DNA from: Candidatus Zixiibacteriota bacterium
Lineage (GTDB): Bacteria; Zixibacteria; MSB-5A5; CAIYYT01
Direction: 5' to 3'
Assembly: GCA_020853795.1 (NCBI GenBank)
Contig: JADYYF010000088.1
Coordinates: forward strand, 12,820-76,819
Length of the DNA: 64,000 bases
Positions 16,717-64,000 of this stretch are shown here, piece by piece; position 1 is the first letter of the stretch; each line of letters opens with the position of its first letter. Made by a program: the position numbers and the translations under genes. The notes under the pieces are model-generated. The model ran no database searches. It saw only the letters and a program-made list of their open reading frames with translations, and was not told the origin of the DNA.

Positions 16717-16733
16717 GATGCCGCCTCAATCGC

Positions 16734-19065: not shown

Positions 19066-19068
19066 CGT

Positions 19069-19746: not shown

Positions 19747-19753
19747 GGCTATC

Positions 19754-41491: not shown

Positions 41492-41505
41492 CTAAGGAGG
41501 ATCCC

Positions 41506-43798: not shown

Positions 43799-46700
43799 CT
43801 ACTGCAGCTTGAGCATTTTGCGAATTTCGGAGTAGCTGCCCGCCTCGAGCCGGTAGAAGTAGACACCACTCGATACCGAACGCCCGAACTGATCGGTGCC
43901 ATCCCAGGTGACGCTGCGGAATCCGGCCTCCTCGTAGCTGTCGACGAGAATCCGGACGGTCTGGCCGAGGATATTGTGCACGGTCAGACGAACATTGCAG
44001 CCCTCCGGCAGCGCATAACTGATTTGCGTCTGCGGATTGAAGGGGTTCGGATAATTCTGCAGCAAGGTGAATTCGCGCGGCAGCACCGATTCTGCCGCCA
44101 GCGAACTGACGATCGCCAACATCCGATTGCCGCTCTCGCTGCCGGAGAGCGCTGCGAGCGCCGGTCGCAATTGGCGGAAGCCCTCGGCGTACTGCCGGAA
44201 GTCCACGGCATCGGTCAAGGTCGGCGCAATCAACTGGTGCGACGAACTCCAATTCTGCGCGATGGTCAAGAGATCGGCGATGTCGATTGCGCCGTCACCG
44301 TCGGCGTCGGCATAGGTTGCCCGCGGGTCAGCCCATTCTTGCGCCTGTTTGGGCGCCCAGCCGTTGCCTTCACCGTAGAGATTGCGCGCCGGGCCTTCCT
44401 GTCCGAAGAAGACACCCAGCGGCAGAACGTCGGCTTCGTTGACGTTTCCGTCATTATTGCAGTCCCCCGGATAAACTGCCGGTCCTGTGACAAAGCGGAA
44501 GACGTAGTCGTCCACGGGCGAGCCTTCGGCGAGATTGTTGTTGTTGCCATCGAGCGAATTGCCGGACTGATCGCGCACAGTGCCCAACAGGCGCACGATA
44601 ATGGTATCATACGGCGGCAGTTTCGCCGCCGGCACCAGCCGCAGGCGGGTGTTATCGTTCAACACCGTGAAGGTCCCGGTAATCTGCTGCTGAGCGAGCC
44701 GGGCGCGCACATCGATGCGTCCGGCATCGAGGGTCGAATCGGCGAGGGGCTCGTTGAGATCAATCAGGATATCGCTGCCGATCAGCACGTGATCGGCCTC
44801 AGCGGCCGGCACGGTCGCGACCACTTTCGGCGGTTTCTGTTCGGGAATCGCCTGTGCCGCCAGAGAGACATAGAGTGTTTCGGCTACCGGGTCGTTCGAG
44901 ACGATCCGCAGAGTCCCCTGCGCCGGTCCGATCGCGGTGGGATCAAACCGTACCGGGATCTTGAAGACGCCGCCGGGCTGAATCGCCGTGCTGGCAGTGG
45001 CCAGGGGCGTAAACTGCGGTTCATCACTGAGCACATTCGAAACGGTGAAGCTCAGGAGCGGGTCCTGGGGGAACTGCAAGCGATTGTTGACATACACGGT
45101 GTCGATGTCGGTCTCATCCTCCTGAACAAGGCCGAAATCGAGAACCGCCGGAGTCACTGCGGCAATCGACAACGGATTGGAATAGAACTGCAGTCTGATC
45201 GTATCGCGCGGCGCATTACGGGCGGAAACGGCGACGACCTGAAGATCATAAGCACCTTTGGCCAGGTCGTTCGACATGGTCACGGTCGCCGTGAAGCTCT
45301 GATTGGCGAGGACTTGGGAAGAACTCAATTGTACCGTTGCCGTTCCCCGCCGCGGCGTTTGCAGAACTGACGCGTTGAGATTGATGCCATATTCATACGG
45401 GCCAAACAAGGTATCGACGTTAATTGTGAAGCGGCGCTGCAACGGCGCAGTAAGGGAGTCGACCGCAAGGAGGCGCAGATCAAAGCCGGTCGCGCGAATA
45501 TAGTCGAGGCGAATGTCGCGATCACCGGTACCGCATTCGTTGGAGGCCACGAGGTCGACCTGGTAGATTCCCGGCCGTAAATAAGTGTAGGTCGGCGATT
45601 GCTGGGTCGAGGTGCCGCCATCGCCAAACGCCCATTCCCAGCCGGTAGCCGGATAGTCGGAACTGCCGGTGAAATTGACTTGCAGCGGCGCCGAGCCGGT
45701 GAGGGGTGTGCCGGAAACAGCTGCAGCCGGCGCATCGATCACGTTGATCGCGAGCAGCATCGTGTCCTCGCCACAACCGTTGGCGGCAATCAAGCGCACG
45801 TTGTTGGCGCCAACGATATTGAACTGATGGGAGGGATTGGCCGTGGTGGAAGTACCACCGTCGGAGAATTGCCAGGCGAAGGTCAGGTCGGCTCCAAGCG
45901 ACGTGCTGCTGAAGTTTACGGTCGTACCGACACAGATGGTGGTGTCGCTTGCCGTGAATGCGGCCTGCGGCGCCGCCAGTACCGTGATCGGCCGTGTGAT
46001 CGTCACGGTATCTGTCTCGCACATGAACGTGGCACTGATCGTCAGGTCACCGGCGATCAGGAACGTTTTCGGAGACATGATCTCATCCCAGACATAGAAC
46101 GTGTCGACGTCCCCATCGCCAAAATTCCAGATCGAAGTTTGCCAGTAGGCGTTGTAGGCGGGAGTAAAGTCGACCAATTCGCCGACGCAGGGCGTCAGCG
46201 GCAACCAGGTGAAGTCCTCGACCGCCAGCTTGCAGTTTTCGTACGGGCCGATGTCGTTGGCGGCACCGACGAAGCGGGAGCTGCCCGCGAAGTCGTTAAA
46301 GTGCGCCCAGTAGGGCAAATTGCGGCCGGCATCAATGAGCGGCGAATTCGAAGACAGGCGAAAATCGCCGCCGGCGAGATTGACGAAAAGCGGATTCACA
46401 CCCTCTAAATTGCCCGCGCCTTGCGCACAGTTGATCTGCGGGAAATCAATAGGGATATTCTGATAAAAGGCGTTGTTGAAGACGAAGCTGGTGTCGCCGT
46501 TGAAGCAATTCGTGGCCGTGCCGTAATTCTCGACAAAGATGTTGTTATAAATCAGCGCCTGAGCGAAAAGCTCGCGATAGATCGCGCCGCCGCCGTCAGC
46601 GGTGGCAATAAGACTACTGTCGCGATAGAACAAATTATTGAAGAGATTGGCGTTCGTGTAATCGGACAGGAACACGGCCCCGCCGTGCCCCTGCACGGCG

Positions 46701-47473
46701 GTATTGCCGATGAAGATATTATTCTGGATCAGAATTGCTGAATCCTGCATGGACGACGAACGGCCCACGACATGGATAGCGGCACCGTCACCTTGCAGGG
46801 AGCGGTTATCTTCGAAGATGTTATTAATGATTTTGGGTTCAGAGAACTCGCAGTCCATGGCCGCGCCGCGCGCGAAGGCGATATTCTGCGCGATATAGTT
46901 GTTGCTGATGATGGAGCGGGAGTACTGCATGGCGATTCCTGCGCCCCAGATATCGGATTCAACCGAACCGTTCTGGTAAATGCGGCAGTTGCGAATTTGC
47001 GGCGAGGAGTACACACCTTCCAATCCCTGCATACTGATTGCGGTCGGCCAATAGCGCGTAATCGTAAAGCCGTCGACGATCGTCGATTCCGAGATGCCGT
47101 AGCCGAAATAGAACGCCGTGCCGTCGCCGTTGCCGTCGAGGAAGGTCGAGTCGGCGCCGCCACGGCTCTTGAACACGACCGAGCCAAAGGTGATAGTGAG
47201 ATACTCCTGGTACGTTCCCGGCTTGACCATTACCGTGTCAGTGGCGTTGAAATTGCGCTGGTTATAGGCAAACTGGATCGTGCGGAAGGGATTGGCCTCG
47301 GTGCCGAAATTGGCGCCGACGGCATCGGTGCCGTTGGTTGCGACCCAAAGCAGGCGCGCTTGCGCCGTTGACGAGAGCAAGACCACGACAAGCAGGACGA
47401 AGATAACGATGTTGATTCGCCGATTACGGTGCGCCAATTTGGACCTCTCCATTTTCGATATACAAAACTCCAT
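43799..47473 (-). CDS. giant secreted multidomain protein. Domains: right-handed beta-helix, two PKD domains, Ig-like domains, a dockerin-like module and a T9SS C-terminal domain.
   Basis: Signal peptide. Repeated beta-helix NNxFxxN motifs. PKD signatures (WQFSDGGTST, WEWAFGDGGTST). Dockerin-like GDCNNDGNVNEADVLPL and DADGDGAIDIADLLTIAQNW. T9SS C-terminal domain NYPNPFNPQTQISYALP...GVYFYRL. The ATG at 47452 is an alternative start. Confidence 0.7.
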   Translation of the reverse strand: MEFCISKMERSKLAHRNRRINIVIFVLLVVVLLSSTAQARLLWVATNGTDAVGANFGTEANPFRTIQFAYNQRNFNATDTVMVKPGTYQEYLTITFGSVVFKSRGGADSTFLDGNGDGTAFYFGYGISESTIVDGFTITRYWPTAISMQGLEGVYSSPQIRNCRIYQNGSVESDIWGAGIAMQYSRSIISNNYIAQNIAFARGAAMDCEFSEPKIINNIFEDNRSLQGDGAAIHVVGRSSSMQDSAILIQNNIFIGNTAVQGHGGAVFLSDYTNANLFNNLFYRDSSLIATADGGGAIYRELFAQALIYNNIFVENYGTATNCFNGDTSFVFNNAFYQNIPIDFPQINCAQGAGNLEGVNPLFVNLAGGDFRLSSNSPLIDAGRNLPYWAHFNDFAGSSRFVGAANDIGPYENCKLAVEDFTWLPLTPCVGELVDFTPAYNAYWQTSIWNFGDGDVDTFYVWDEIMSPKTFLIAGDLTISATFMCETDTVTITRPITVLAAPQAAFTASDTTICVGTTVNFSSTSLGADLTFAWQFSDGGTSTTANPSHQFNIVGANNVRLIAANGCGEDTMLLAINVIDAPAAAVSGTPLTGSAPLQVNFTGSSDYPATGWEWAFGDGGTSTQQSPTYTYLRPGIYQVDLVASNECGTGDRDIRLDYIRATGFDLRLLAVDSLTAPLQRRFTINVDTLFGPYEYGINLNASVLQTPRRGTATVQLSSSQVLANQSFTATVTMSNDLAKGAYDLQVVAVSARNAPRDTIRLQFYSNPLSIAAVTPAVLDFGLVQEDETDIDTVYVNNRLQFPQDPLLSFTVSNVLSDEPQFTPLATASTAIQPGGVFKIPVRFDPTAIGPAQGTLRIVSNDPVAETLYVSLAAQAIPEQKPPKVVATVPAAEADHVLIGSDILIDLNEPLADSTLDAGRIDVRARLAQQQITGTFTVLNDNTRLRLVPAAKLPPYDTIIVRLLGTVRDQSGNSLDGNNNNLAEGSPVDDYVFRFVTGPAVYPGDCNNDGNVNEADVLPLGVFFGQEGPARNLYGEGNGWAPKQAQEWADPRATYADADGDGAIDIADLLTIAQNWSSSHQLIAPTLTDAVDFRQYAEGFRQLRPALAALSGSESGNRMLAIVSSLAAESVLPREFTLLQNYPNPFNPQTQISYALPEGCNVRLTVHNILGQTVRILVDSYEEAGFRSVTWDGTDQFGRSVSSGVYFYRLEAGSYSEIRKMLKLQ

Positions 47474-48224
47474 CCAACGGCAGCAAATCGCCGCGCCAGT
47501 TGACTAGTTGCAGCGTACTCGGATCGATATTGAGATGCGCCAATCCGGAGCCGACAGCGGTGAATGTCACTTGCAGCAAAGTCGCGTCCGCTGAGACGCC
47601 TTGTGGCTGCTGGTTGCCCTTCAAAGTATAACCCACGGCCAGGTAGTTCTCGCGTTCAACCGCAAAGAAGATCGGGTCGCGACCGGCAAAGAGATCTCCG
47701 GCTTCGAAGGCGGCGACTGACATCATGGTGGAATCAAATTCCAGTCGAAAACTCGCGCCGAAGAGTGAGTCAACGTTATAAATCCGTACCTGGAAAGTGG
47801 CCGAGTCGGCATCGGTCATGGCGTGATAGATTGGCGTCACCTTAATCATCGGAACTTGTGGTTCAAGATCGATGATGATCTCGGTTATCTGGCCACCCAA
47901 CACATCCGCCGTGCGGCTGCCGCTGTAGAGAGCCACCTCCTCGGCATCAAAAGCTGTCATCGTGAAGACGCGGTCCTCGCCGATCGGCACTTCCAGTTCA
48001 ATCGTCGCTTCGCCGTTTACCATTTCTGCCGACTGGGTGATGGTCTCCATGTCGGCGGCTGTCACGGCCAAGACTATGCCGGTGACATTGCTACCGACAC
48101 CCAAATCCTTGGCCAAGGCTGAAACCACGACTTCCCGGGCACTAGCCGACGAGGGCAGATTTCCTGAGCAGCCGGCGACCAGGAGCGCCGCGCCACCGAG
48201 CAAGAACAGAAGAAGATTGCGCAT
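47424..48224 (-). CDS. lipoprotein with a cohesin-like C-terminal domain
   Basis: Lipobox LLVAGCSG. The C-terminal approximately 140 aa (FQVRIYNVDSLFGASFRLEFDSTMMSV...ATLLQVTFTAVGSGLAHLNI...) fit the cohesin beta-sandwich sequence pattern. It overlaps the 3' end region of the giant dockerin-bearing gene. Confidence 0.45.
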   Translation of the reverse strand: MRNLLLFLLGGAALLVAGCSGNLPSSASAREVVVSALAKDLGVGSNVTGIVLAVTAADMETITQSAEMVNGEATIELEVPIGEDRVFTMTAFDAEEVALYSGSRTADVLGGQITEIIIDLEPQVPMIKVTPIYHAMTDADSATFQVRIYNVDSLFGASFRLEFDSTMMSVAAFEAGDLFAGRDPIFFAVERENYLAVGYTLKGNQQPQGVSADATLLQVTFTAVGSGLAHLNIDPSTLQLVNWRGDLLPLDGVLYIENGEVQIGAP

Positions 48225-49342: not shown

Positions 49343-49380
49343 AGCGCAGATCGTTGGAATCAGATAGCGATAACCAGGTT

Positions 49381-51692: not shown

Positions 51693-51745
51693 ACTGTTTT
51701 CCTTTCTTCAAACATCAGAAAGTTGACAAAATCACGCAAATCATT

Positions 51746-53728
51746 TTAGCGCTTGCGCAATGTAAACCGGACAACGTCATCCTGCCGAAGATTGACAAAC
51801 TGGGCGCGGCCACCGGTGCTGTAGTCCGGGTGCTCCACCCAGATCTTATGCGGTCCGGCCAACAGCTTGAGATTACAAGGAGTTTCTGTGTCCTCTATCT
51901 TGACGTTGTCCACAATGACTTGCGCCGCAACGCCCGGACCGTCGTTGGGTTCGCGAGCGCCGATACTCAGTTTGTATTCTTTGTTCTCCAACGAAAAGAC
52001 CTTGCTGGCTTCTGTGCCGGTCACCATCACCACATCTGTTAGCCTGCCCATATCGGTGACGATTCCGACCTCATGATTTCCTGGAGCGAGATCACCAAAT
52101 GTCACGGGTTGTCCATCATATTTTACGCCTTTTCCGTCGAAGATGACCTGAACCGGTTCGAAAATCTTGTAGTTTTCGACGGTTACGCGGATTGAACCCA
52201 GCGCCGTCGGGACTAATCCCTGTAATGTCAACGACTTGGATTCGACAGAATTGCCAATCCGAATCGTTTCGTTGACTGGTTTCATCTCTCGACCAGAAAC
52301 CTTGATTGCATAATCACCGGGGGCCAGGCCGGTGTAGTCCAGCGCTGTCCCCGTATACGCCTGACTCTGCCCGGCGAATTCAACGGTCACAGGCACAAAT
52401 GCCTGATAGTTGTTCAGAGTTAGTTTCAGACCGCCGGTAGCAGGCGTCTCCTGGAAACCGCGCCAAATTTTAATCAGCGCCGGTGGGAAACGACCCTCGG
52501 CAAAATCGAGCTTCGGGTTGGAACTGTAAAGGCCGCGCAGAAGTGTGGTTGCTTCAGTGATCTTCTGATTCATCAGCATTGCAGACGCCAGAAGTTGGAC
52601 GATTTCCTGTTGCTGCTGCGGTGACGCGCCCGATGAGTTCCGCAGATTGGTCAGCAGGGATTCAGCCAGGGGATATTGCTTGTCGGAGTAACGATCCATC
52701 GCCAGTTGCATGGAGTCGGCGAAGGTGGCTTGTGCCGGGAGCTTGCCGTCTTCCCTGCCGCTCAAGAGCATCACGCCCGCAACCACCGCTGCAACTATGA
52801 CCACGCCGATCAAGGCATACAGCCACTTGCGCGAACCGCCGGGCTTGGAGTACTCGACGGCGATCGTCTTGTCGAGGCTGGCGGTGTCGGTGCGCACAGT
52901 CTTGTCGTCGGTCCCCGTCAGCGGCAGGGCGCGGAGGGCCTGCGACATTTCGCCGGCACTCTGGTAGCGCTTCTCCGGCTTCTTCTCCAACGATTTCATT
53001 ACGATCTGCTCGAGCGGACGCGGTAAATCATTGCGGTACTGAAGAGGCGACGGCGGGTCTTTCTCCAAGTGACCGGACATGATTTCATAGTCGGTATCCG
53101 CCTCAAACGGCGTGTGCGCGGTCAAGACCTGATAAAGCGTGACGCCCACCGAATACAGGTCGCTGCGGTTGTCGATGTCTTTGCCGCGAATCTGCTCCGG
53201 TGACATGTAGAGCAGCGAGCCGGCACCGGTCCCGGTGCGGGTGAGCTTGGCGCTGCCGGCGACTTTGGCGATGCCGAAGTCGGTGATCTTGACCGTACCT
53301 GACTTGGTCAGCATGATGTTGGACGGTTTGATGTCGCGGTGAACTATCCCGTTTTGGTGGGCGTAGCCAAGCGCTGAGAGCAATTGGTCGAAGATGGGAA
53401 CGACTTCCGCCGCCGAAAGAAAGCGGCGGTCGCGCAGAACCTTGTCAAGATTCGTGCCGTCGACAAACTCCATCACGATGAAGTTGAGGCCGTCGAGTTG
53501 ATCGTAATCGTAGACGCGCACAATGTTGGGGTGCTCGAGCCGCGCCAACGCCAGCGCCTCGCGCTCGAAGTAAGCGGCCAGCATCTCATCGGAAGCGACT
53601 TGCGGATGAAGGATCTTGAGCGCGACCTGCTTCTGCAGCTTGGTGTGATACGCCAAGAAGACCGCCCCGAATCCCCCTTCGCCGAGCTTATCAATGATGT
53701 CGTATTTCCCGACGCGCTTTAAGTCCAT
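51746..53728 (-). CDS. Hanks-type Ser/Thr protein kinase with TM anchor and extracellular PEGA-domain repeats
   Basis: Kinase motifs GEGGFGAVF, VALK, HRDIKPSNIML and DFGIAK. TM segment LYALIGVVIVAAVVAGVML. PEGA-like repeats include GPHKIWVEHPDYSTGG and GDYAIKVSGREMKPV. Confidence 0.8.
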   Translation of the reverse strand: MDLKRVGKYDIIDKLGEGGFGAVFLAYHTKLQKQVALKILHPQVASDEMLAAYFEREALALARLEHPNIVRVYDYDQLDGLNFIVMEFVDGTNLDKVLRDRRFLSAAEVVPIFDQLLSALGYAHQNGIVHRDIKPSNIMLTKSGTVKITDFGIAKVAGSAKLTRTGTGAGSLLYMSPEQIRGKDIDNRSDLYSVGVTLYQVLTAHTPFEADTDYEIMSGHLEKDPPSPLQYRNDLPRPLEQIVMKSLEKKPEKRYQSAGEMSQALRALPLTGTDDKTVRTDTASLDKTIAVEYSKPGGSRKWLYALIGVVIVAAVVAGVMLLSGREDGKLPAQATFADSMQLAMDRYSDKQYPLAESLLTNLRNSSGASPQQQQEIVQLLASAMLMNQKITEATTLLRGLYSSNPKLDFAEGRFPPALIKIWRGFQETPATGGLKLTLNNYQAFVPVTVEFAGQSQAYTGTALDYTGLAPGDYAIKVSGREMKPVNETIRIGNSVESKSLTLQGLVPTALGSIRVTVENYKIFEPVQVIFDGKGVKYDGQPVTFGDLAPGNHEVGIVTDMGRLTDVVMVTGTEASKVFSLENKEYKLSIGAREPNDGPGVAAQVIVDNVKIEDTETPCNLKLLAGPHKIWVEHPDYSTGGRAQFVNLRQDDVVRFTLRKR

Positions 53729-53910: not shown

Positions 53911-55938
53911 TCAGAAGGGATTGCAGGGGGGGTACGGTCCACCGCCGAAGATGTACGAGATCAGGGCGACCGCATCCGAGATGTTCACCGGCATGCTGCA
54001 GTTGGCATCACCGGCTTCGTCAACGGGGGTCGGTGCGGGGCCGCTGGCAAAGATGTACTGGATGACATAGACGGCGTCGCTGACGTTGATGGCGCCGCTG
54101 TTGTCAGCATCTCCATGCATGACCAGCACGAGCACATCGCCGGAATCGGTATCGCTGACTCCCACAACGCTGGTGGCATCGGCAGTGACGCTGACCGAAT
54201 TGACGGTCGCGGGCATCACGCCGGCCGGCGCCGTCAAATTCACGGTAACGTCGGCCTTGTCGCCCGCCGCCACGGTTACCGACGAAGGCGAGAAGGTCTG
54301 CGCCCAGCCAAGGGAATTGGTCGCGCTGACGTTATAGGTCTCATCGAGCAGGCCGGTATTCTCGATCTGGAAGAGCAGCGACGTGCCGGTATTCGAGTAG
54401 ACGCTGTCGGCGGCCGTGGCGATGACGTTGACCGCGTAGTTCGGAGCAGTGGTGTACGAGGCGCCATAAGTGTAGCTGCGGTCGTTGATCGACTGAGAGA
54501 CGTTGGTAATGACCATGATCAGCGCATCGTAGTTGCCGGCATTGGGCAGGGTGAAGGAGCCATCGCCGGTGACATTGAGCGACATCTGATTCTCGACGTA
54601 GGTGTTGGTCGGGGTCATCTTCCAGGCGAGTAAGTTGACGATCCAGGGTACCGAGTTGTCGCCGTTGAAGTCGACCGTGAAAGTGGCGGCGCCGGCCGGA
54701 ATGTTAAAACGCACGTAGTTGGAGCCGTAAGCATCGGGGAACTTGCCGGTAATGGGCGTCTGGCCGGAGGTCGGATATGTTGTGTGGGTGCGCACCAGCG
54801 GCACCTGCAGGTAATGGGAAGCCTCGACGTAGTGAAGTCCGTCACTACGGCTGCCGGTGATGAAATTCCACATGGTAAACCGCGCCACCTGCTGGTTAAT
54901 ATTCTGCCCGTAGTTGTTGGTCAGGATATTGCCGGTGCCGACATACGAGGTCGTGGTGCGCAGTTCATCCCAAATCTGCGGCATGATCGCGACGCCGAAA
55001 TTTTCCTGCAGGAAGGTCGGCCAGATGAATGCCGCATACATGTGCAGACCGGTATTAGAATTCAAGGCGTAGTCCGGGACACTAAAGAACTCCGTCATAT
55101 AGTTGTAGTTGTCGTTCACCGGATCAAAGACCACATCCTCCATCCAAGTGGAAGAAGCTTCCATGAACCAGGAGTTCTCGCCGACGTCATAGGCAAACTG
55201 CACGGCGTGGTAGTATTCGTGGGCGACAGTCACTTTGGCAGCGCCCTTCTGGTCGCCGTCGGGGTCATCATTATTCGGGAAACCGATGAAATTGCGATGA
55301 ACCGAGATATAGCTAATGGCATCGTTCCAGGCTTCAGGTCCGGCGCCTTCCGGCTGGGTGTAGCCGTAGTAGCCCATTTCTTCGGTGTAAATATCATAGC
55401 GGGCGTCGCCGCCGGCCACTCCATCCGAGGGCGGCTTGCGGTGGCCGAGGTTGGTGACCTCGGTGCGGTAAGAGCTGTCGGCGTAGGCGGCAAGCCATTC
55501 AACATAATCGGGGATGCCGTTCGCCGGGCTGGTATCGGCGGTGGGGACGGCATCCGAGCCGGTGATATTGTAGTGAATCTTAAACTCACCACCGGGAGAA
55601 TTGTAAGTGTTCGTTGCTGACGGCCGGGCCATGATCTCACGGAATTGTGCCTGCCCCTCCGGGGTAAACTGGTCCCAGTTCTGGCGGATTTCGAGGATGA
55701 TCTCGGTAGCGCACTTGGCGACTTCGATCGCGTCGGACTGAAAGTCCGCCGGCAGGGCCTGCGGTTCGCGGATCGACATCATTTCGTAGAGCATCTTTTG
55801 TTCGTAGTTTAACTCGCCGTTGGCGTAGGCATCCTCGATCAGGCGATAGGACGATTGGCGGGCGGCGGATGACGGAATCGCCGCGGCAAGCACGACGATC
55901 GCCAACAGCAGCAAGGTACGTTTTAATCCGATTTGCAT
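53911..55938 (-). CDS. secreted thermolysin-like (HExxH...E) gluzincin with a C-terminal dockerin-like tandem module
   Basis: Signal peptide. TVAHEYYHAVQFAYDVGENSWFMEASSTWMED (compare thermolysin AHELTHAV..NEAISD). C-terminal GDADNSGAINVSDAVYVIQYIFASGP...GDANCSMPVNISDAVALISYIFGGGP. The ATG at 55938 with a GGGAG RBS was chosen as the start. The track ORF starts at 55965. Confidence 0.55.
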   Translation of the reverse strand: MQIGLKRTLLLLAIVVLAAAIPSSAARQSSYRLIEDAYANGELNYEQKMLYEMMSIREPQALPADFQSDAIEVAKCATEIILEIRQNWDQFTPEGQAQFREIMARPSATNTYNSPGGEFKIHYNITGSDAVPTADTSPANGIPDYVEWLAAYADSSYRTEVTNLGHRKPPSDGVAGGDARYDIYTEEMGYYGYTQPEGAGPEAWNDAISYISVHRNFIGFPNNDDPDGDQKGAAKVTVAHEYYHAVQFAYDVGENSWFMEASSTWMEDVVFDPVNDNYNYMTEFFSVPDYALNSNTGLHMYAAFIWPTFLQENFGVAIMPQIWDELRTTTSYVGTGNILTNNYGQNINQQVARFTMWNFITGSRSDGLHYVEASHYLQVPLVRTHTTYPTSGQTPITGKFPDAYGSNYVRFNIPAGAATFTVDFNGDNSVPWIVNLLAWKMTPTNTYVENQMSLNVTGDGSFTLPNAGNYDALIMVITNVSQSINDRSYTYGASYTTAPNYAVNVIATAADSVYSNTGTSLLFQIENTGLLDETYNVSATNSLGWAQTFSPSSVTVAAGDKADVTVNLTAPAGVMPATVNSVSVTADATSVVGVSDTDSGDVLVLVMHGDADNSGAINVSDAVYVIQYIFASGPAPTPVDEAGDANCSMPVNISDAVALISYIFGGGPYPPCNPF

Positions 55939-55952
55939 GGGGTCTCCCGGGG

Positions 55953-57752
55953 TTAGTATTGGCATGGCGGCGGGCCGCCGGCAAAGATATACGAAATCAG
56001 ATGCACGGCATCACTAATGGAACCGATGCCGTCGCAGTTGACATCGGCGATGTAGCTCGGGTAGGGTGTAGCGCCGCCGGCGAAGATCCAGTTGATCAAG
56101 AAGACGGCGTCGGAGATGCTGATCTGAGTGTCGCCGTCGACATCGCCGGGACGGCGAAAATGCAGATGATACGTGAAATTGTACTCGGTGCCGAAGTGCG
56201 CGGCGACAGCGGGAATGAACGTGACGCGCAGCACATTCCGGAAATCGGCGATCCAGACCTTGGCCTTGCCTCCGGCAAGCGGCACGAGCAGCGAATCAAA
56301 GTAGTTGCCGTCGCCGTAATCCACCACATACGCCAATGTCCAAGTGGTGGCGTTCAGGCCGGTGAAGTCGAACCCGACGATGCCGTCATAGCCGTTAAGA
56401 TTTTCAAAGACGATATAATTCGAGGCATACGGCTGCGGCGGAGTCACCGAGAAATTACCCGAATCGGGGAGGTCGTAGTGATAAGCCATCACATCGACTG
56501 GTGGATAATCGGGCGCGGATTCATAGTGTGTGCCGGTGGAGCGGCTGTTGGTGTAGTAGTTCCACAGCACGAAGCGCGTAAACTCGCGTTCGAACGAGCT
56601 TCCGGCCGAGTCGATTACAGCGCCCCAGGCTACGATTGCGGAGGTCGTGCGGCATTTTGCCCACAGATCGCGCATGATGATGGCACCGAAGCGTTCCTCA
56701 AGGTACTTCGGCCACACGAACGAAGCGTAGCGATGAAAATCGCCGGCCTGTAACCCGACCTCCGGATAGTTGAAGAATTCCGGTAGGTAGTTGTAGTTGT
56801 CATTCACTTGCGGAAACGCCATCTCTTCCATCCAGGTGGACGACATCTCCATAAAGAAACTAGCTTCCGAAACATCGTAGGCGAACTGCACGGCGTGGTA
56901 GAACTCGTGGGCAATCGTGACTTTGAGCGCACCCATCACATCGCCCTCGGGATCGTCGTTCGGTGGAAATCCCGGCGAGAAGGTGCTGTGGATCACGATA
57001 TGGGAGGCGTAATCGTTCCACGATTCGGGACCAGGTGACTCGGGAGTCGTGTACCCGTAGTATGGAATTTTTTGGAAGTAGATATCGTATTGATCGCTGC
57101 CGCCCTGGCCGTTGTCGACCGGCGGTTTAAGATGCGCCAGTTGGTCGAGTTCATAGGACCAAACGGAATCGGCGAGGTTCGCGGCACGTTCGATGAAGTC
57201 GGGAATTCCGGACGAATCATTGTCGGCCGTCGGTACAGCGTGCAGGCCAGTGAGGTCGAAGAAAAGCCGGAAGTAGCCTTGCGGCGACTCGACGTAGAAT
57301 TGCGTCTGTGGTCGGGCCATAAACATCTTGGCATACGAGCCGTAAAGTTCGGGATTGGCGTTGATCACGGCAAAGGCCTCGACGAGGGCATCAGTCGCGC
57401 ACTTCGAGATGGCGGCGGATTCGCGCGAATAGCGCTGGGGAAGCGATTGCGGTTCAAGAATTGCCATTGCCCGATAGATCGTGGCCATGTCGGCACTAAT
57501 CAAGCTCGACTGCTGGTCGGCAGCGAGTTGTTGTTCGAAAAGAGATGGCGAAGTCGTCGGAGCCTCATGAGCCAGGAGTGCCGGGCTGAGCAAGGCGATG
57601 TAAAGAAGTGATAGAAGTCTGCGCAATTCAACAACCTTCAGGACAAGACGGTACGGTGACTGGCACGAAATACACTTCGACGAATGCAATATACTCCCGC
57701 CGTTGCGGTTTGTCAAGTACAGTTCCGGCAATGGCTTAAGGGTCGTTTTCAA
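55953..57752 (-). CDS. paralogous secreted gluzincin with a C-terminal dockerin-like tandem module
   Basis: TIAHEFYHAVQFAYDVSEASFFMEMSSTWMEE. C-terminal GDVDGDTQISISDAVFLINWIFAGG...VNCDGIGSISDAVHLISYIFAGGPPPCQY. The true start is probably an internal GTG near 57635, just before the signal peptide LRRLLSLLYIALLSPALLA. Confidence 0.55.
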   Translation of the reverse strand: MKTTLKPLPELYLTNRNGGSILHSSKCISCQSPYRLVLKVVELRRLLSLLYIALLSPALLAHEAPTTSPSLFEQQLAADQQSSLISADMATIYRAMAILEPQSLPQRYSRESAAISKCATDALVEAFAVINANPELYGSYAKMFMARPQTQFYVESPQGYFRLFFDLTGLHAVPTADNDSSGIPDFIERAANLADSVWSYELDQLAHLKPPVDNGQGGSDQYDIYFQKIPYYGYTTPESPGPESWNDYASHIVIHSTFSPGFPPNDDPEGDVMGALKVTIAHEFYHAVQFAYDVSEASFFMEMSSTWMEEMAFPQVNDNYNYLPEFFNYPEVGLQAGDFHRYASFVWPKYLEERFGAIIMRDLWAKCRTTSAIVAWGAVIDSAGSSFEREFTRFVLWNYYTNSRSTGTHYESAPDYPPVDVMAYHYDLPDSGNFSVTPPQPYASNYIVFENLNGYDGIVGFDFTGLNATTWTLAYVVDYGDGNYFDSLLVPLAGGKAKVWIADFRNVLRVTFIPAVAAHFGTEYNFTYHLHFRRPGDVDGDTQISISDAVFLINWIFAGGATPYPSYIADVNCDGIGSISDAVHLISYIFAGGPPPCQY

Positions 57753-57879
57753 CTGAATCTATCGCCCGGACTGTCATATTGGCCGATCGCTACGGGGATC
57801 TGGCCGTGCTGCTTAAGCGCAGGAAATGTGCCAGATTTTCGCTCAGTTGGCGACAAACATGTGGAGCTTCATGCGGTAG

Positions 57880-60258
57880 TTGACTCCGCCACTGAAAAGC
57901 CTATTTTGGGGCGTGGTTCGACCGCAAGTTTATATCACGCTTTTCCTTGTGACCACCGCAACTTTGCTCTTTGAGCTCTCGCTCACACGGTTGTTCTCTG
58001 TCGTCATGTATTACCACTTTGCTTTTCTGGCAATCTCGTTGGCAATGTTCGGGTTAGGAGCGTCCGGCTTGTGGCTCTATTTTCGGCGTCGCCGCCACTC
58101 CCTGGAAAACCTGAGCCGCGACCTGACGCTGCTCACGGCTGGATTTGCGTTCACCGCAGTGATCGCAATCGTGACGGCGTTATCGCTGCCGATCTCGATC
58201 AATTACAGTTCCGGCAATGTGATTCGATTGGTGGTCGTCTATCTCGCCTGTGTTTTGCCGTTCTTCTTCTCCGGTCTTACCGTCTCGCTAATCTTGTTCC
58301 TCGGTGCGAAAGCGATATCGCGGCTGTACTTCATGGATTTGATCGGCGCTGCTACCGGCGCGCTTCTGACGGTGCCGGTGCTCAATTGGGTCGGCGCGAT
58401 AAACGGGTTGTTGATAGCCGCGGCGTTGGCTGCACTCGCCGCTTTTCTTGGCGGCGAGCAGACCCGCGGGCAGTTGCGTTGGCTTGGCAGAGCGATCGCT
58501 GCGGCGGCAATTGGGCTGGTTATCATCAATTTGACGTCACCCGTGCTCAAGGTGCGCTATTTCAAGGGTCAGGAAAAGCAGCTGGTCGAATTCCAAAAGT
58601 GGAACGCGCTGTCATGCATCACCGTGCAAGGTGTCGAAGGAGAGCAGACCGCGAAGGCGATGGACATCGACGCCGATGCGCGGACGTACATCTTGCGCGA
58701 CCCGTTCCGCCTGTTTGGTCTGGAGCTGATCAAGACGGAGATCGCGCGGCGCTGGATTTCGCATCTACCGAACGTCCTTCGACCCGACGGTGACGTCTTG
58801 ATCATCGGCCCCGGCGGCGGCATCGATGTCATCTTCAGCCTGGCTTGGGGTGCTCGATCGGTTGATGCCGTCGAGATCAATCCGATTATTACTGACGATG
58901 TGATGCGCGGTGAATATGCGGAATTTTCCGGCCGGCTGTACAGCCACCCAGCCGTGCGGGTTCACACGGCGGAAGGGCGCGCCTTCATAGCTCGAAGCAA
59001 TCAGCAGTATGATCTGATTCAACTGACGCTGGTGGATACCTGGGCGGCTACGGCGGCGGGAGCGTTCAGCCTGTCAGAGAGCTACCTCTACACGGTCGAG
59101 GCGTTCCGCGAATATCTGCGTCACCTGAATCGCGACGGGATTGTGGCGATTACCCGCTGGCTCTCCGCCAAACCGAAAGAGGGACTGCGGCTGATGGCGG
59201 TGGCGCTGGAAGCTGCCGGCACTCCCGCAGTCCAACGGGGCGGGAATATTGTGATCATCGGCAGCAATTCTCGGGCAGGCGGGGAGTCGGAGATGATGAC
59301 AATGTTGCTCAAGCGCGAGGCGTTTACGGCGGCGGAAATCGCGGCAATCGATAATCGCTTGAACGAAGTCGGCGGACGTTTTGTCTTTCGACCGGATGGC
59401 GCGGGTGATCCGGCATTCGTGCAATTGGCAAGTGCTGCCGACCGGGAGCGATTCTATGAAGGCTATGAATTCAATATTCGCCCAACCACCGACAATCAGC
59501 CCTTCTTCTTTGCCACCGCCAAGGGCACCGAGCTGGCGCAGATCATGGCGTTCGAGTACGAATCGAGAAAGAACAATCTCGGGTTGTTCAATCTGTACCT
59601 GGCCGGAGTGCTGTCGGTGATATTGGTGCTCGTATTCCTGGTGGCGCCAATTATCTTCAGCGTCGACGGTCGCAGCGTTCTGAAAGAGCCCGGGTCGCTG
59701 CGCGCGCTGGGATATTTCATCGCAATCGGGCTGGGATTCATCCTGATCGAGGTTGCGGTGATGCAGAAACTGATCCTCTATCTGGGTCATCCCATCTACT
59801 CACTGACGGTGGTGCTGAGCACAATTCTGATTTGCGCCGGCTTGGGCTCGATGGCGACAACGAATTACGTTCCGGAAACCGGGGGCAAGCGACGCCGCGT
59901 CATCTTCAGCGGAATCCTGGTCTACACTCTGGCGTTGCTCGTCGGACTCGGACCGGTGACCCAGGCCACCTTTGGCTGGCCGGACGCCGCGAGAATGACG
60001 CTGACTGTTTTGCTCCTGGCGCCGTTGGGGTTTCTGATGGGGCAGCCGTTTCCGTTGCAGTTGAAATGGGTCGAGAAGAACCACAGCAGTTTCATCCCGT
60101 GGGTGTGGAGCTTGAATGGCGCCGCGTCGGTTCTGGGCTCGGTGGCAGCGGTCGCGCTGGCGATGACGTACGGATTCAACACCGTCATCGTGATAGGAGC
60201 GGTGTGCTATTTGGCCGCGTTCGGTCTGGGAGCCACCGCAGCAATCAAACGGGGCTGA
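57880..60258 (+). CDS. polytopic membrane protein with a fused spermidine synthase-like (aminopropyltransferase fold) domain
   Basis: Six to eight N-terminal TM helices and a central SpeE-like core (DVLIIGPGGGIDVIFSLAWGARSVDAVEINPII...YDLIQLTLVD), followed by C-terminal TM helices. Confidence 0.7.
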   Translation: MTPPLKSLFWGVVRPQVYITLFLVTTATLLFELSLTRLFSVVMYYHFAFLAISLAMFGLGASGLWLYFRRRRHSLENLSRDLTLLTAGFAFTAVIAIVTALSLPISINYSSGNVIRLVVVYLACVLPFFFSGLTVSLILFLGAKAISRLYFMDLIGAATGALLTVPVLNWVGAINGLLIAAALAALAAFLGGEQTRGQLRWLGRAIAAAAIGLVIINLTSPVLKVRYFKGQEKQLVEFQKWNALSCITVQGVEGEQTAKAMDIDADARTYILRDPFRLFGLELIKTEIARRWISHLPNVLRPDGDVLIIGPGGGIDVIFSLAWGARSVDAVEINPIITDDVMRGEYAEFSGRLYSHPAVRVHTAEGRAFIARSNQQYDLIQLTLVDTWAATAAGAFSLSESYLYTVEAFREYLRHLNRDGIVAITRWLSAKPKEGLRLMAVALEAAGTPAVQRGGNIVIIGSNSRAGGESEMMTMLLKREAFTAAEIAAIDNRLNEVGGRFVFRPDGAGDPAFVQLASAADRERFYEGYEFNIRPTTDNQPFFFATAKGTELAQIMAFEYESRKNNLGLFNLYLAGVLSVILVLVFLVAPIIFSVDGRSVLKEPGSLRALGYFIAIGLGFILIEVAVMQKLILYLGHPIYSLTVVLSTILICAGLGSMATTNYVPETGGKRRRVIFSGILVYTLALLVGLGPVTQATFGWPDAARMTLTVLLLAPLGFLMGQPFPLQLKWVEKNHSSFIPWVWSLNGAASVLGSVAAVALAMTYGFNTVIVIGAVCYLAAFGLGATAAIKRG

Positions 60259-60399
60259 GTTTCCTCAACCCCGTACCATTCGGAAGGTTCGCCCAAGGGA
60301 GCGAGATCACATTACCCCGGGGACGTCGCCGTACGAGAAGACGGATCTTCGCGACTTGACGATCGAGCCAAGGCGACTTCCCTGTCGCGCACGCGGTCG

Positions 60400-60579
60400 T
60401 TACAGCTCGATGGTGCGAGCGCAGTGCGATGTGTCCAGCATCGCATATTCGCCCTTGAGGATCTTGTTGACAATCGTCACGAACTTGCGGGTTACGAGCG
60501 ACTGCAACTCATACGGATGCCAGATGTCCTTCTCGAGGACCGGAGCGAACTGCTCGTTCTGCTTGCGACGTGGCATGTA
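60400..60579 (-). CDS. small hypothetical protein (59 aa)
   Basis: The ATG is preceded by a strong GGAGGTGTTAC RBS. An in-frame upstream extension to 60762 would overlap the sigma-like gene. Product MPRRKQNEQFAPVLEKDIWHPYELQSLVTRKFVTIVNKILKGEY... Confidence 0.3.
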   Translation of the reverse strand, partial: YMPRRKQNEQFAPVLEKDIWHPYELQSLVTRKFVTIVNKILKGEYAMLDTSHCARTIEL

Positions 60580-60724
60580 ACACCTCCAATCAAGAATGAT
60601 TGAAGTCAGCACCCACAGACGGACGGTGCGTGGTTTATGCCCGATTCCAGGTGATTTCTTGGAAATACGTTGGCGGCTCAGTGTGAGGGCGAACCTTCCA
60701 TCTTTTAGTCGTTTGACATACAGC

Positions 60725-61039
60725 TCAAAGTCTAAATTTCTCGTGTAACCGCTTGATGGCACGCTGTTTATAAATATGAACGACCTGCTGGGTTACACCC
60801 AGGAGAGCGGCAATTTCGCGTTCAGTTTTGCCCGAAAGAATCATCATCAGAGTTTGTCGTTGTCGCTCGGAGAGACTGTGACGGATATGCCAAAGCAGTT
60901 TGTTGCGGAATTTCACGTAGCTGGCGCGTTTATCGGCAGCAGCGGCAGTCTCGTAATAGGCGGACATCTCTTGCGAGAAGCGTTCAAGGACGTCACGATC
61001 AACAATGACTTCGGCAAAAATGTGTTCGCGTTGTGCCAT
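60725..61039 (-). CDS. stand-alone sigma-70 region-4-like HTH mini-protein (about 105 aa)
   Basis: C-terminus LSERQRQTLMMILSGKTEREIAALLGVTQQVVHIYKQRAIKRLHEKF is a canonical sigma-70 r4 / ECF-type HTH. No region 2 is present. An internal ATG at MAQREHIF was chosen; the longer ORF N-terminus is low-complexity. Confidence 0.5.
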   Translation of the reverse strand: MAQREHIFAEVIVDRDVLERFSQEMSAYYETAAAADKRASYVKFRNKLLWHIRHSLSERQRQTLMMILSGKTEREIAALLGVTQQVVHIYKQRAIKRLHEKFRL

Positions 61040-61124
61040 GCTGGTTACGACTGAATCTTGATCGGGAGAAGGATAACAGCTGGCGCCGGCGCCGCAAATC
61101 AAAAACTGGTGACGAGTCGCACAA

Positions 61125-61796
61125 TTAGTTATCGGCGAGATGGTACAGCAGGCCGAAGTAGACCGGGAAGTACAGCATATTCTTGCGCAGCGGACCAATC
61201 GATGCGCCGTCGGTATCCCACGCTGAGCTGAAAGAGTTGAGCCAGACGGCCTCGATGGCGAAGCTGCCGCTGATCTGCGGGGAGAAATCGGCGTGAATTC
61301 CAAAGCCGATGGTGCCGACCGGCTTGGCGCCGAGAGTGTAGTCATGAAATTGCAGCGAATCGTTGTCGAACCGAGGCATGGAGACGCGGCTGGCATCGAA
61401 GAGCCCCGCACCGAGTCTCATGAAGGGACGGTACTTCCCACTCTGCAGGAGGCTGTACTGCATGAAGACGCCGGCGCGGCGGATGCGCACATGCGAGTCG
61501 TCGGCGTCACCGAAGACCGAGACTGATCGTGGGCCGAAAGTGGAATACGAGAGTTCCAGTCCGGCGACAGTGGAGTTTGAGACGAAGTAGCCGAATTCGC
61601 CGGAGAGCGTGTAGCCCTGCTTGCGCCAACTGGCCGCGGCGGCGTTGTAGTTGGCGTCGGCCAGAGCGCCGACGGGAAAGCTGATGCCAAGGCGCGGCGA
61701 GATATAGGCCGTCCCGGAACGATCGAGGTCGGCGGGCGGCGTCGCCGCAGCAACAGCCGAAGCCAGGACAACGAAGAACAGAAAAGTCCGCATCAT
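61125..61796 (-). CDS. small outer-membrane beta-barrel protein (OmpW/OmpA-beta-barrel-like)
   Basis: Signal peptide MMRTFLFFVVLASAVAAA. Eight to ten amphipathic strands. C-terminal aromatic-rich ...LLYHLADN. Confidence 0.45.
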   Translation of the reverse strand: MMRTFLFFVVLASAVAAATPPADLDRSGTAYISPRLGISFPVGALADANYNAAAASWRKQGYTLSGEFGYFVSNSTVAGLELSYSTFGPRSVSVFGDADDSHVRIRRAGVFMQYSLLQSGKYRPFMRLGAGLFDASRVSMPRFDNDSLQFHDYTLGAKPVGTIGFGIHADFSPQISGSFAIEAVWLNSFSSAWDTDGASIGPLRKNMLYFPVYFGLLYHLADN

Positions 61797-61856
61797 AGTT
61801 TGTTATCGACAACACGGACGTGGAGTTTAGGTGCTCAATTATGGGGAGAGCGGCGC

Positions 61857-64000
61857 TTACTTGCAGTTGGCGCACGGAGCCTGGCCACCGGCGAAGATGT
61901 AATTGATCAGATAGACAGCGTCCGAGATCGAGACGGCGTGGCTGCAGTCGGCATCGCCGGCCAGCACAGGGTTGGGCGGCGGACCGCCGGCAAAAATGTA
62001 ATTGATCAGATAGACGGCGTCGGAGATCGAGATGGCCTGGCTGCCGTCGGCATCTCCGCACACATACTCGGGACAGCCCACTTGATCGGGCGAGACGTAC
62101 TGGCAATTAAAAAACAGCGCCTTGTCGATGACCGCCTTGAGAGTCGTAGTCGTGCCGTTAAGTTGGCCGGCGAGGATGAAGACCAAGCTGAGAGTGTCAC
62201 TCGGACCGACGAGGCTCTCATGAATACCGCCGACGACGATACTGTTAAGATCACCCGGCAGCGGTGTCGACTCGAATTTGGTGACGCCGTTCATCTTGTT
62301 CCAGACGCTGTCGACCTGATACACGCGCAGCGGGACGACATACTTGCTGTCTTCCCAAACGAAACCGCCGGGAGCCGGATTGCCGTCGACGCGCAGTACT
62401 GCCAATCCGGCAAGACGATTGGAATTGGGCGGAGTGGCGGTTCCCTGCTGGTAAACCATCTGGTGGCTGTCAAAGCCGCCGCCAAGATTATCGAAGCCAT
62501 TGTCGGACGGAAGATCCCAGTCGGCGGCGAAACCGACGGTGAGGTCCTCGATCCGGCCGGCCGCGTTATGCGGCCCGAGATAGAAGTCGAAACGCGCCAG
62601 CAGGAACTCGGAATTGCCGGCGTCCTTGGCGGCATAATAGCGCACATTGAAACCAATCGTCGAGTCGCGGTTGACGCCCTTGCCGAAGGCGCGCCGGTAA
62701 GCCGGCGACCCGGTGGAATCGACAGTGAGCGCCGAGACGGCATAGAGGGAGCCATAGGGGTTGGCGGCAGTCGGCATGCCGCCGCCATGGCCATAGATCA
62801 GCCAACTCAGGGAATTGCGCGAGGTGCCGAGGATCAGAGAGGCGTCGCGCAGATAGCTCAGTCCGCCACCGCTAAAGAAAGTAAACTGATTGCCGGTGGA
62901 GTAGCAGCCGATGCGGCCGGCCTGATTGACGGCAGTACGCACCACGGCTGTGCGCAACGCAAAGTTCTGGGGCTGGAAAAAGGTCGCAAAGTTGTAAAGG
63001 TCAAAGGGGATTTGTTCGGTGATCTCGCTGTCACCGTCGCTGTAAGTGAAAGCTACAGTTGCCTGGTAAAAGCCCTCGACGATCGGCCCCGTCAGACGGA
63101 TTTCCAGCGTATCGAAATTGATGCAGCCGACAGAGACCGCGCCGTTGGGAGGATGATTCGGGAAAACCAGCCAATTGGCTCCCTGCTGGAAAGTGATGCC
63201 CCGCGTGTAATTCGCGACGGCGTTGCCGGTATTGGTCAGCACCAGAAATGTATCCAGCTGTTGTCCCGGGGCGGTGTGGAGCGGATAGCGAAATTCGGTC
63301 GGTTCAACGACGAGGTGGCTGTAAGATTCTGTCGCAAAGCAAGGATGGCTGAGGTTCATAACATCATTGAGCGTCCATGTTCCTTCGGAATAGGCGACTG
63401 CGCCCGGATCCTTGTCGAGAATGTACTGCAATCGCAACGAATCGGTGACATAGGGGGCGGCAGATGACCAGTGTTCGGAGAGGCAGGAGCCGGCAGCGCA
63501 ATTGTTGGACGCTGTAATGGTGAGGTTCACGGGCGGTCCCCAGGAGGCGCCGCCATTTTGTGAGACCTGGGCAAAGAGCTCACCGTTGGCAAAACCGGCC
63601 TGAGAACAGTCATGGTGGGGCGGAACGCTCTCGTCGTCACCGAGGAAGTAAGTGTAGGTCGCATAGAGCCGGGGCATGCCGCTGACGATGCACTCGCTTA
63701 AAGCCATCTTGGAGACGTTTTTGTTCCAAATGCCGCGCTTGCAGGCGGGTTCATCGTTATCCGCGGCGAGCACCAAAGTTCGACACTGGCTGCAGTCACT
63801 CCAATGATAGAGGCGCGCGCCCTGGTTGCCCACTTGAGCCGTGGCGGAGTCGAAGAAGGAAGTTGTCCAGACGATCTGCAGGCAGCCATCGGAGGTATAG
63901 AGCGCGTTGAGATCGGTATAGGCCCGTTCGTCATCGGCACCGGTGTAGTTGGTGATGTTGACGGCAGCCGACCAGTTCGTGCCGAGGTTGGTCGAGTACT
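61857..64000 (-). CDS. secreted Cys-rich protein with a C-terminal dockerin-like tandem module; N-terminus lies beyond the window
   Basis: Reading the minus strand upstream of the listed GTG start shows an open frame to the window edge (…YTSDGCLQIVWTTSFFDSATAQVGNQGARLYHW…). C-terminal GDADGSQAISISDAVYLINYIFAGGPPP...GDADCSHAVSISDAVYLINYIFAGGQAPCANCK. Confidence 0.55.
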   Translation of the reverse strand, partial: YSTNLGTNWSAAVNITNYTGADDERAYTDLNALYTSDGCLQIVWTTSFFDSATAQVGNQGARLYHWSDCSQCRTLVLAADNDEPACKRGIWNKNVSKMALSECIVSGMPRLYATYTYFLGDDESVPPHHDCSQAGFANGELFAQVSQNGGASWGPPVNLTITASNNCAAGSCLSEHWSSAAPYVTDSLRLQYILDKDPGAVAYSEGTWTLNDVMNLSHPCFATESYSHLVVEPTEFRYPLHTAPGQQLDTFLVLTNTGNAVANYTRGITFQQGANWLVFPNHPPNGAVSVGCINFDTLEIRLTGPIVEGFYQATVAFTYSDGDSEITEQIPFDLYNFATFFQPQNFALRTAVVRTAVNQAGRIGCYSTGNQFTFFSGGGLSYLRDASLILGTSRNSLSWLIYGHGGGMPTAANPYGSLYAVSALTVDSTGSPAYRRAFGKGVNRDSTIGFNVRYYAAKDAGNSEFLLARFDFYLGPHNAAGRIEDLTVGFAADWDLPSDNGFDNLGGGFDSHQMVYQQGTATPPNSNRLAGLAVLRVDGNPAPGGFVWEDSKYVVPLRVYQVDSVWNKMNGVTKFESTPLPGDLNSIVVGGIHESLVGPSDTLSLVFILAGQLNGTTTTLKAVIDKALFFNCQYVSPDQVGCPEYVCGDADGSQAISISDAVYLINYIFAGGPPPNPVLAGDADCSHAVSISDAVYLINYIFAGGQAPCANCK

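Follow-up and report, generated by a model that had tools for sequence, protein, structure and literature searches.

Probable non-cellulosomal cohesin–dockerin system with putative metalloproteases in a Zixibacteria-like bacterium

Three proteins encoded on the minus strand of a 64-kb stretch of Candidatus Zixiibacteriota DNA (contig JADYYF010000088.1; the whole analyzed stretch is hereafter called the window) share a C-terminal module of ~65 amino acids (aa). The genes of these proteins, designated A, B, and C, lie between 53.9 and 64 kb, and a related module occurs in a fourth protein, D. The locus raises the question of whether the module is a true dockerin and, if it is, which cohesin it would bind. 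An initial annotation had proposed a type I dockerin that docks onto a lipoprotein encoded at 47424..48224. Our analysis indicates that A, B, and C are probably exported dockerin proteins in a non-cellulosomal cohesin–dockerin system of a Zixibacteria-like bacterium.

The module is made up of two repeats, each comprising a 12-residue loop (D1-x-D/N3-x-D/S5-x3-S/N9-x2-D12), a helix of the form SDAV(Y/F)LI(N/S/Q)YIF, and the motif GGPxP. Across A, B, and C, every one of the six loops was complete at the calcium-ligand positions D1, D/N3, D/S5, S/N9, and D12. Protein A ended in GDADNSGAINVSDAVYVIQYIFASGPAP-TPVDEA-GDANCSMPVNISDAVALISYIFGGGPYPPCNPF, with the loops DADNSGAINVSD and DANCSMPVNISD, and protein B in GDVDGDTQISISDAVFLINWIFAGGATP-YPSYIA-DVNCDGIGSISDAVHLISYIFAGGPPPCQY, where GDVDGDTQISISDAVFLINWIFAGGATP represents the first half of the module and ADVNCDGIGSISDAVHLISYIFAGGPPPCQY the second. 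The C-terminus of protein C was CGDADGSQAISISDAVYLINYIFAGGPPP-NPVLA-GDADCSHAVSISDAVYLINYIFAGGQAPCANCK. The two repeats were identical at 23/29 positions in C, 17/29 in B, and 16/29 in A, with a spacing of 33–34 aa in these three proteins and 52 aa in D. The modules were located at 53914..54117 (A, residues 617–684), 55956..56150 (B, residues 535–599 of the open reading frame, ORF), and 61860..62060 (C), all on the minus strand. A fifth gene with the same terminal module, ending in …INYIFAGGPAPDPLTAADVDCNDLVTISDAVYLINYIFSGGPQPCAGCP, was found just past the window end (locus L001, 2–151), bringing the dockerin proteins of the cluster to five. Only 1–7 residues followed the last GGPxP, and neither Pfam (E ≤ 1) nor NCBIfam (E ≤ 0.01) revealed a type IX secretion system (T9SS) tail in any of A, B, and C. 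Both the common two-repeat module and its position at the extreme C-terminus, as described in the initial annotation, were thus borne out.

A regular expression for the loop and helix was run on the six-frame translation of the window, with 100 shuffles as the control. It returned eight matches, all of them arranged as pairs in the ORFs of A, B, C, and D, compared with a mean of 0.03 (mononucleotide shuffling) or 0.08 (triplet shuffling) and a maximum of 1 in the controls, in agreement with the proposed clustering of four modules. A chance or compositional likeness of Asp/Gly-rich, low-complexity sequence, which has nothing in its favor except the short length of the motif, was refuted by this count, by the E-values of 1e-28 to 1e-37 obtained with the family hidden Markov model (HMM), by the thousands of homologs, and by the confident predicted fold, so that its probability can be considered practically nil.

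The assignment to the dockerins was examined by profile searches and structure prediction. In Pfam, the modules of A (residues 617–672) and B (residues 535–589) scored 25.6 and 30.0 bits against Dockerin_1 (PF00404), above the gathering cut-off of 22.9 bits, while C scored 21.0–21.3 bits; precomputed PF00404 annotations were present on close homologs of the module of C. All three modules consist of the two ~22-residue segments, each a calcium loop plus a helix, that characterize this family. In none of the three proteins was the dockerin region spanned by an NCBIfam model. A profile termed A2 was built from 40 module sequences (A, B, C, and 37 database homologs), and a search of PDB sequences with it gave 30 matches at E ≤ 1, of which the first 29 were all dockerins and the best was 3ul4_B (E 3.2e-7). 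The AlphaFold2 model of the module of C, computed from the A2 alignment, had a predicted local distance difference test score (pLDDT) of 93.3 and a predicted template modeling score (pTM) of 0.81, with helices at residues 17–29, 37–40, and 50–62. When this model was compared with the PDB using Foldseek, the top 33 matches were dockerins without exception, with template modeling (TM) scores of 0.6–0.8 for ranks 1–32 and root-mean-square deviations of mostly 1.5–2.6 Å. Judged from these profiles and the model, A, B, and C each end in a bona fide type I dockerin, as the initial annotation had proposed, and the modules are predicted to adopt the canonical three-helix dockerin fold.

The subfamily represented by the modules of A, B, and C, which we call DOCK1, is characterized by GGPxP after each helix and by cysteines that covary between position −1, loop 2, and the C-terminal tail. 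The DOCK1 HMM matched A, B, and C with independent E-values of 5.9e-29, 1.6e-28, and 2e-37, respectively. Among representative protein clusters, the A2 profile detected 49,682 at E ≤ 1e-3, 16,885 at E ≤ 1e-10, and 336 at E ≤ 1e-30, and the best-scoring proteins carried up to 12 copies in tandem. Three proteins from outside the window (P0109, P0110, and P0116) consisted almost wholly of 6–12 tandem DOCK1 modules, and in P0109, for example, nine stretches were matched along its 720 aa; such tandem proteins might cross-link cohesin-bearing proteins.

The distribution of the subfamily bears on an alternative, namely that the module derives from a dockerin but has lost cohesin binding and is either a lineage-specific C-terminal sorting or secretion signal, a sorting signal having been raised by the initial annotation itself, or a calcium-stabilized structural or adhesive cap. 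The module does occupy the extreme C-terminus in A, B, C, and every ortholog, these proteins lack a recognized outer-membrane export signal, and many dockerin proteins outside the cellulosome producers are generally described without an identified cohesin (Peer et al., 2009, as cited in PMC8542988). However, 321 of 499 well-aligned DOCK1 instances were internal, including N-terminal copies and arrays of 9–12, and DOCK1 is therefore not a pure C-terminal sorting signal. Furthermore, the residues of the helix face were strongly conserved across unrelated passenger proteins, as would be the case for a common binding partner, and cohesins were found both next door and within the same polypeptides, as described below. 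Protein D bears a dockerin-like module as well as a real T9SS tail, so that the two elements are not interchangeable. We therefore consider a sorting signal or cap quite unlikely.

The cysteines of DOCK1 occurred at three kinds of sites, namely position −1, directly ahead of the first loop, loop 2, at its position 4 or 6, and the short tail behind the last GGPxP, which held one or two of them. Two tail cysteines were present in 127/134 modules that had a cysteine both at −1 and in loop 2, one tail cysteine in 88/114 that had the −1 cysteine only, and none in 64/115 that had neither (Fisher p = 8e-40 without phylogenetic correction, 499 module instances). Protein C shows the four-cysteine form (CGD...DADCS...PCANCK), A and B the form with two cysteines. 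An intramolecular clasp, in which position −1 contacts the C-terminal end and stabilizes the module, has been described for dockerins (Slutzki et al., 2013, PMC3821032). The covarying cysteines of DOCK1 fall at the same two places. The described clasps are non-covalent, based on stacking, hydrophobic, or electrostatic contacts, and that paper does not mention cysteine or disulfide, whereas in DOCK1 a disulfide would make this contact and another would link loop 2 to the tail. From the covariation, the cysteines most likely form one or two disulfides as a covalent version of the clasp, which would fit folding in an oxidizing periplasm or exterior.

The proposed partner at 47424..48224 (minus strand) is a lipoprotein of 266 aa with the lipobox LLVAG-C19, an N-terminal β-sandwich (residues ~29–108), and a C-terminal cohesin (residues ~125–266), the cohesin domain being encoded at nucleotides 47427–47852. 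C19 was invariant in 12 homologs, one of which was labeled 'cohesin domain-containing protein [Candidatus Zixiibacteriota]'. Pfam Cohesin (PF00963) matched at 25.6 bits, compared with a gathering cut-off of 24.1. The AlphaFold model had a mean pLDDT of 81.8, exceeding 85 across most of residues 125–266, and its top 50 Foldseek matches in the PDB were all cohesins, headed by 2xdh (E 2e-9, TM 0.79), a non-cellulosomal cohesin of Archaeoglobus fulgidus. By both the family match and the modeled fold, this lipoprotein is a genuine cohesin protein. It carries one cohesin and is the sole cohesin detected in the window. Its family was found in 16 of 185,579 species genomes and, separately, in 12 protein clusters, by searching that differs in sensitivity from that used for DOCK1, and it looks rare.

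The start of the gene for protein D overlaps the end of the cohesin gene. D (43799..47473, minus strand, 1224 aa) contains a signal peptide, a β-helix, two PKD domains, Ig-like domains, Big_5, a divergent dockerin-like module (44219–44473, minus strand), and a T9SS type A C-terminal domain (43802–44053, minus strand; TIGR04183, 33.7 bits vs. a cut-off of 23). The module of D scored 23.1 bits against the PF00404 cut-off of 22.9, was aligned with DOCK1 by hhalign at 86% probability (E 5e-6), and has ~30 extra residues between its two repeats; its status as a dockerin is borderline. The synteny of this gene pair was assessed in the 16 species genomes encoding a relative of the lipoprotein. In 15 of them, including three at 25–36% identity of which one is from phylum UBP2, the cohesin gene abuts or overlaps a gene with a D-type module and a T9SS C-terminal domain. 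The contig of the sixteenth (L016) ends inside the D homolog, before the module and tail region. The A/B pair was found upstream of the cohesin gene in 12/16 loci and not within 10 kb of it in L021, L022, and L023, while the contigs of L016 and L019 were too short to judge. The records of loci L008–L020 were mostly titled 'uncultured Ignavibacteria bacterium', which is probably a placeholder taxonomy.

In view of this synteny and of the rarity of the lipoprotein family relative to the very common DOCK1, the main partner of the lipoprotein cohesin is more likely the module of D than modules of the A/B/C type. T9SS type A cargo has its C-terminal tail cleaved on secretion. Since the module of D lies directly before such a cleavable tail, the lipoprotein could hold D on the surface, and the conserved gene pair suggests cohesin-mediated retention of T9SS cargo. 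An M6-like metallopeptidase encoded nearby at 41506–43233 also has a T9SS tail (TIGR04183/PF18962), without a dockerin. The T9SS type A domain resembles the dockerin module in being C-terminal on secreted surface proteins of the same organism (D and the M6 peptidase), but it is a β-sandwich, whereas the dockerin is α-helical, of a calcium-binding type, and elsewhere internal or in tandem.

A second class of candidate partners emerged from the DOCK1 proteins themselves, as a cysteine-flanked domain of ~160 residues occurred one to three times in each of 62 of the 150 top DOCK1 proteins, with the consensus ...LGCP...GDSV..P.Y.TND..L.G.SLGF.YNS.DIE..SV..GS..P...N.VLIG...PQ..GLLATL...IDIDS.FV.PAG.F.F...GG.I.P.Y.DCG. 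The carriers included P0131, P0136, P0137, P0141, P0149, and P0183, all from outside the window; the gene neighbors of P0137 were housekeeping genes only. When the middle domains of P0149 and P0141 were compared with the lipoprotein cohesin family as single sequences, hhalign gave a probability of 2–6%. A profile of 26 sequences of the domain, termed A3, gave 81% (E 1.2e-5) against the lipoprotein family, and its first 14 PDB matches were only cohesins (best 4dh2_A, 3.8e-5). Pfam Cohesin was reached by 5/26 members (best 8.5e-7). It was the 26-sequence profile that settled the domain as a cohesin. Two proteins with A3-type cohesins were named Zixibacteria, so that the phylum has scaffoldin-like proteins combining cohesins with DOCK1.

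The initial proposal, in which A, B, and C would use their DOCK1 modules to dock onto the lipoprotein cohesin, which would thereby display the proteases on the outer membrane, was thus upheld with respect to the cohesin itself, which was recognized by Pfam and by fold, while the synteny pointed to the module of D instead. In support of the proposal, this confidently folded cohesin is the only one detected in the window, and A and B lie on the same strand within 6–10 kb in 12/16 related species. Nevertheless, the most divergent loci (L021, L022, and L023) keep the cohesin and a D-type gene without A/B within 10 kb. In addition, at least five dockerin proteins would have to depend on one protein with a single cohesin, and DOCK1 shares polypeptides with the second cohesin class. 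The 12 lipoprotein clusters compare with ~17,000 DOCK1 clusters (E ≤ 1e-10) in searches of unequal sensitivity, and because DOCK1 is far commoner than the lipoprotein family, DOCK1 in general must have other partners. This pairing is consequently regarded as doubtful.

As a working mechanism, calcium would fold the DOCK1 module, one helix face of which would bind the flat β-sheet face of a cohesin, so that the passenger enzyme is tethered non-covalently to the envelope or to scaffoldin-like proteins. The near-duplicate repeats may permit either of two orientations (dual binding mode). Our best guess is that the lipoprotein cohesin would retain D at the cell surface via its dockerin-like module, while A, B, and C would bind through DOCK1 to the lipoprotein cohesin or, more probably, to the cysteine-flanked class, and the DOCK1-bearing scaffoldin-like proteins of the phylum would build multi-protein, protease-bearing assemblies. 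A two-tier system of this kind, with D held by the co-transcribed outer-membrane lipoprotein cohesin rather than by lipid or lipopolysaccharide and with disulfide-clasped DOCK1 loading metalloproteases and other exported proteins onto scaffoldin-like proteins, is a tentative proposal that may well prove wrong. If true, it would represent a protein-degrading, cellulosome-like assembly outside the Firmicutes.

The passengers in question are putative proteases in A and B. Protein A (53911..55965, minus strand, 684 aa) comprises a Sec signal peptide (N-terminus MPILTPGDPMQIGLKRTLLLLAIVVLAAAIPSSAARQ), an MXAN_6640/DUF6055 HExxH metalloprotease domain, an Ig-like domain, and the dockerin (Pfam DUF6055, Ig_VWA7, and Dockerin_1). 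Its orthologs of ~670 aa are spread throughout Zixibacteria, under the name 'MXAN_6640 family putative metalloprotease' or 'dockerin type I repeat-containing protein'. Protein B (55953..57626, minus strand, ~557 aa) has a signal peptide, an MXAN_6640/DUF6055 metalloprotease domain, and the C-terminal dockerin, and its gene overlaps that of A by 13 nucleotides. With NF045524 of NCBIfam (MXAN_6640 family putative metalloprotease, cut-off 140 bits), A and B scored 228.4 and 217.1 bits, both matched DUF6055, and their HExxH motifs were HEYYH and HEFYH, followed by (F)MEASS/FMEMSS. By these family matches and motifs, A and B are putative tandem MXAN_6640/DUF6055 HExxH metalloproteases. The mechanical ORF of B extends to 57752, and the public gene call begins inside it, at ATG 57488 (511 aa), with loss of the signal peptide. 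The true start is most likely TTG 57626, which is preceded by GAAGG and yields the signal peptide MRRLLSLLYIALLSPALLA/HEA; the hydrophobic N-terminal stretch was kept in all eight orthologs compared.

Protein C (61857..64000, minus strand) is cut at its N-terminus by the window end. The start at 63833 given in the initial annotation was found to be mechanical, as the frame is open to the window edge (base 63998) and the full ortholog, encoded at 342–3401 of locus L001, has 1019 aa with an N-terminal signal peptide. Signal peptides are thus present on A, B, and, via the full ortholog, C. Protein C is Cys-rich and contains SxxxGxxW (Asp-box-like) motifs, and a Pfam scan found nothing in it besides Dockerin_1 (21.0 bits). 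In PDB sequence searches with the whole of A and C, the dockerin region alone was matched, the passenger domains having no solved relative. No glycoside-hydrolase or carbohydrate-binding module domains were found by Pfam and NCBIfam in the dockerin proteins of the window, and the combination that defines a cellulosome, a multi-cohesin scaffoldin with dockerin-bearing carbohydrate-active enzymes, is not present in the window. DOCK1 proteins with several cohesins do occur elsewhere in the phylum.

Several observations weigh against a functioning cohesin–dockerin system of this composition. The binding, the calcium dependence, and the disulfides are inferred from sequence and predicted fold, C by itself stays just below the PF00404 cut-off, and the cysteine statistics take related sequences as independent. 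The profile of D-type orthologs matched calmodulin EF-hands and dockerins equally (E ~2e-7). No A3-type cohesin was found in the window or in the 24 fetched loci. The Pfam and NCBIfam scans recognized no outer-membrane export signal in A, B, or C, and if these proteins stay periplasmic, the surface assembly is wrong. A mirror-tree analysis of 11 orthologous loci gave partial correlations with the cohesin of 0.49 for the module of D, 0.04 for that of A, and 0.28 for that of B, but this result is uninformative because the control, the catalytic domain of A, reached 0.54.

Compared with the clostridial cellulosome pairs (Clostridium thermocellum Xyn10B–CipA, PDB 1ohz/2ccl; OlpA–Doc918, 3ul4), the system shares the two calcium loops and helices, the three-helix fold, the internal two-fold sequence symmetry, the placement at the C-terminus of secreted enzymes, and a partner with the jelly-roll cohesin fold. 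However, the host is a diderm FCB-group bacterium rather than a Firmicute, the passengers are putative metalloproteases and the Cys-rich protein C instead of glycoside hydrolases, and the local cohesin is single, on a lipoprotein, and not part of a multi-cohesin scaffoldin. At the cohesin-contact positions 10/11, clostridial dockerins have S-T, whereas the modules of A, B, and C have I/V-S, and DOCK1 further differs by GGPxP after each helix and by its conserved cysteines.

Non-cellulosomal cohesins and dockerins have long been known across life's three domains (Peer et al., 2009, as cited in PMC8542988). The systems of Archaeoglobus fulgidus (2xdh) and Clostridium perfringens (NagH/NagJ, 2ozn) likewise involve proteins unrelated to cellulose breakdown, but they belong to other phyla and carry other passengers, while the operon context with T9SS cargo is conserved here. 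For 'Ca. Stygibacter' of the Cloacimonadota, a cellulosome-like system for polypeptide and polysaccharide degradation has been inferred (PMC8542988). It also belongs to an FCB candidate phylum, with signal-peptide enzymes including peptidases that carry C-terminal dockerins and with a T9SS-linked cohesin protein. The T9SS tail of the Stygibacter system belongs to a multi-cohesin scaffoldin of 3755 aa, whereas here it is on the dockerin-like cargo D, and the cohesin is a small lipoprotein. Our literature search found no paper combining Zixibacteria with dockerin, cohesin, or cellulosome, and a 2024 cellulosome genome survey contained no text on other phyla or proteases.

The names given by NCBI to homologs of the module, the lipoprotein, and protein A ('dockerin type I domain-containing protein', 'cohesin domain-containing protein', and 'MXAN_6640 family putative metalloprotease'), all from Candidatus Zixiibacteriota or candidate division Zixibacteria, a phylum of the FCB group, indicate that the system is of a non-cellulosomal cohesin–dockerin type already recognized by annotation pipelines, with no new mechanism. 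The modestly new details are the probable disulfide clasp, the strict gene pair of a cohesin with a D-type module and T9SS tail, and the cohesin class that mostly eludes Pfam. If docking works as proposed, a widespread uncultured sediment and soil phylum would arrange its secreted proteases by the plug-and-socket principle of the cellulosome, in a cell with two membranes and, in addition, a type IX secretion system, which would bear on the attack of particulate protein by uncultured FCB bacteria. A possibly disulfide-stabilized dockerin and a cohesin class missed by Pfam could also interest builders of designer enzyme complexes.

Upstream of the cohesin gene, the minus strand encodes a Ser/Thr kinase with PEGA (51746–53728; Pfam), two TPR and CsgG-like lipoproteins (50682–51692 and 49381–50685; CsgG 24.3 and 22.6 bits vs. 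20.8), one of which had a faint TPR_Slam match, and an unannotated outer-membrane β-barrel-like protein of 372 aa with no Pfam match (48224–49342). The order of this string was kept in 12/16 loci; in L016 and L019, the end of the contig truncates part of it, and L021 and L023 carry the block in inverted orientation. As a speculation, the string from 48224 to 53728 might form an outer-membrane export or envelope assembly unit, and we infer that its genes may be members of the docking system.

Beyond D, a conserved trio on the plus strand (38211–43233) encodes a 658-aa domainless protein, a DUF5723/TraF_2-like outer-membrane protein, and the M6-like metallopeptidase. A zf_Tbcl treble-clef zinc-finger protein of 95 aa (43281–43568, minus strand) was conserved just downstream of D, and a polytopic membrane protein of 792 aa with a spermidine-synthase-like domain (57880–60258, plus strand) was conserved beside B on the opposite strand. 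Elsewhere in the window, there were two GAF-domain proteins, one with additional PAS and HisKA domains (477–2408; a sensor kinase) and one with GAF only (33717–35750), together with ribosomal protein S1 at 23943–25931 and a flagellar cluster at 8780–21328 (minus strand) containing FlhA/FHIPEP, the hook protein FlgE, and the hook-length control protein FliK. The presence of flagellar and housekeeping genes indicates that the window is chromosomal DNA.

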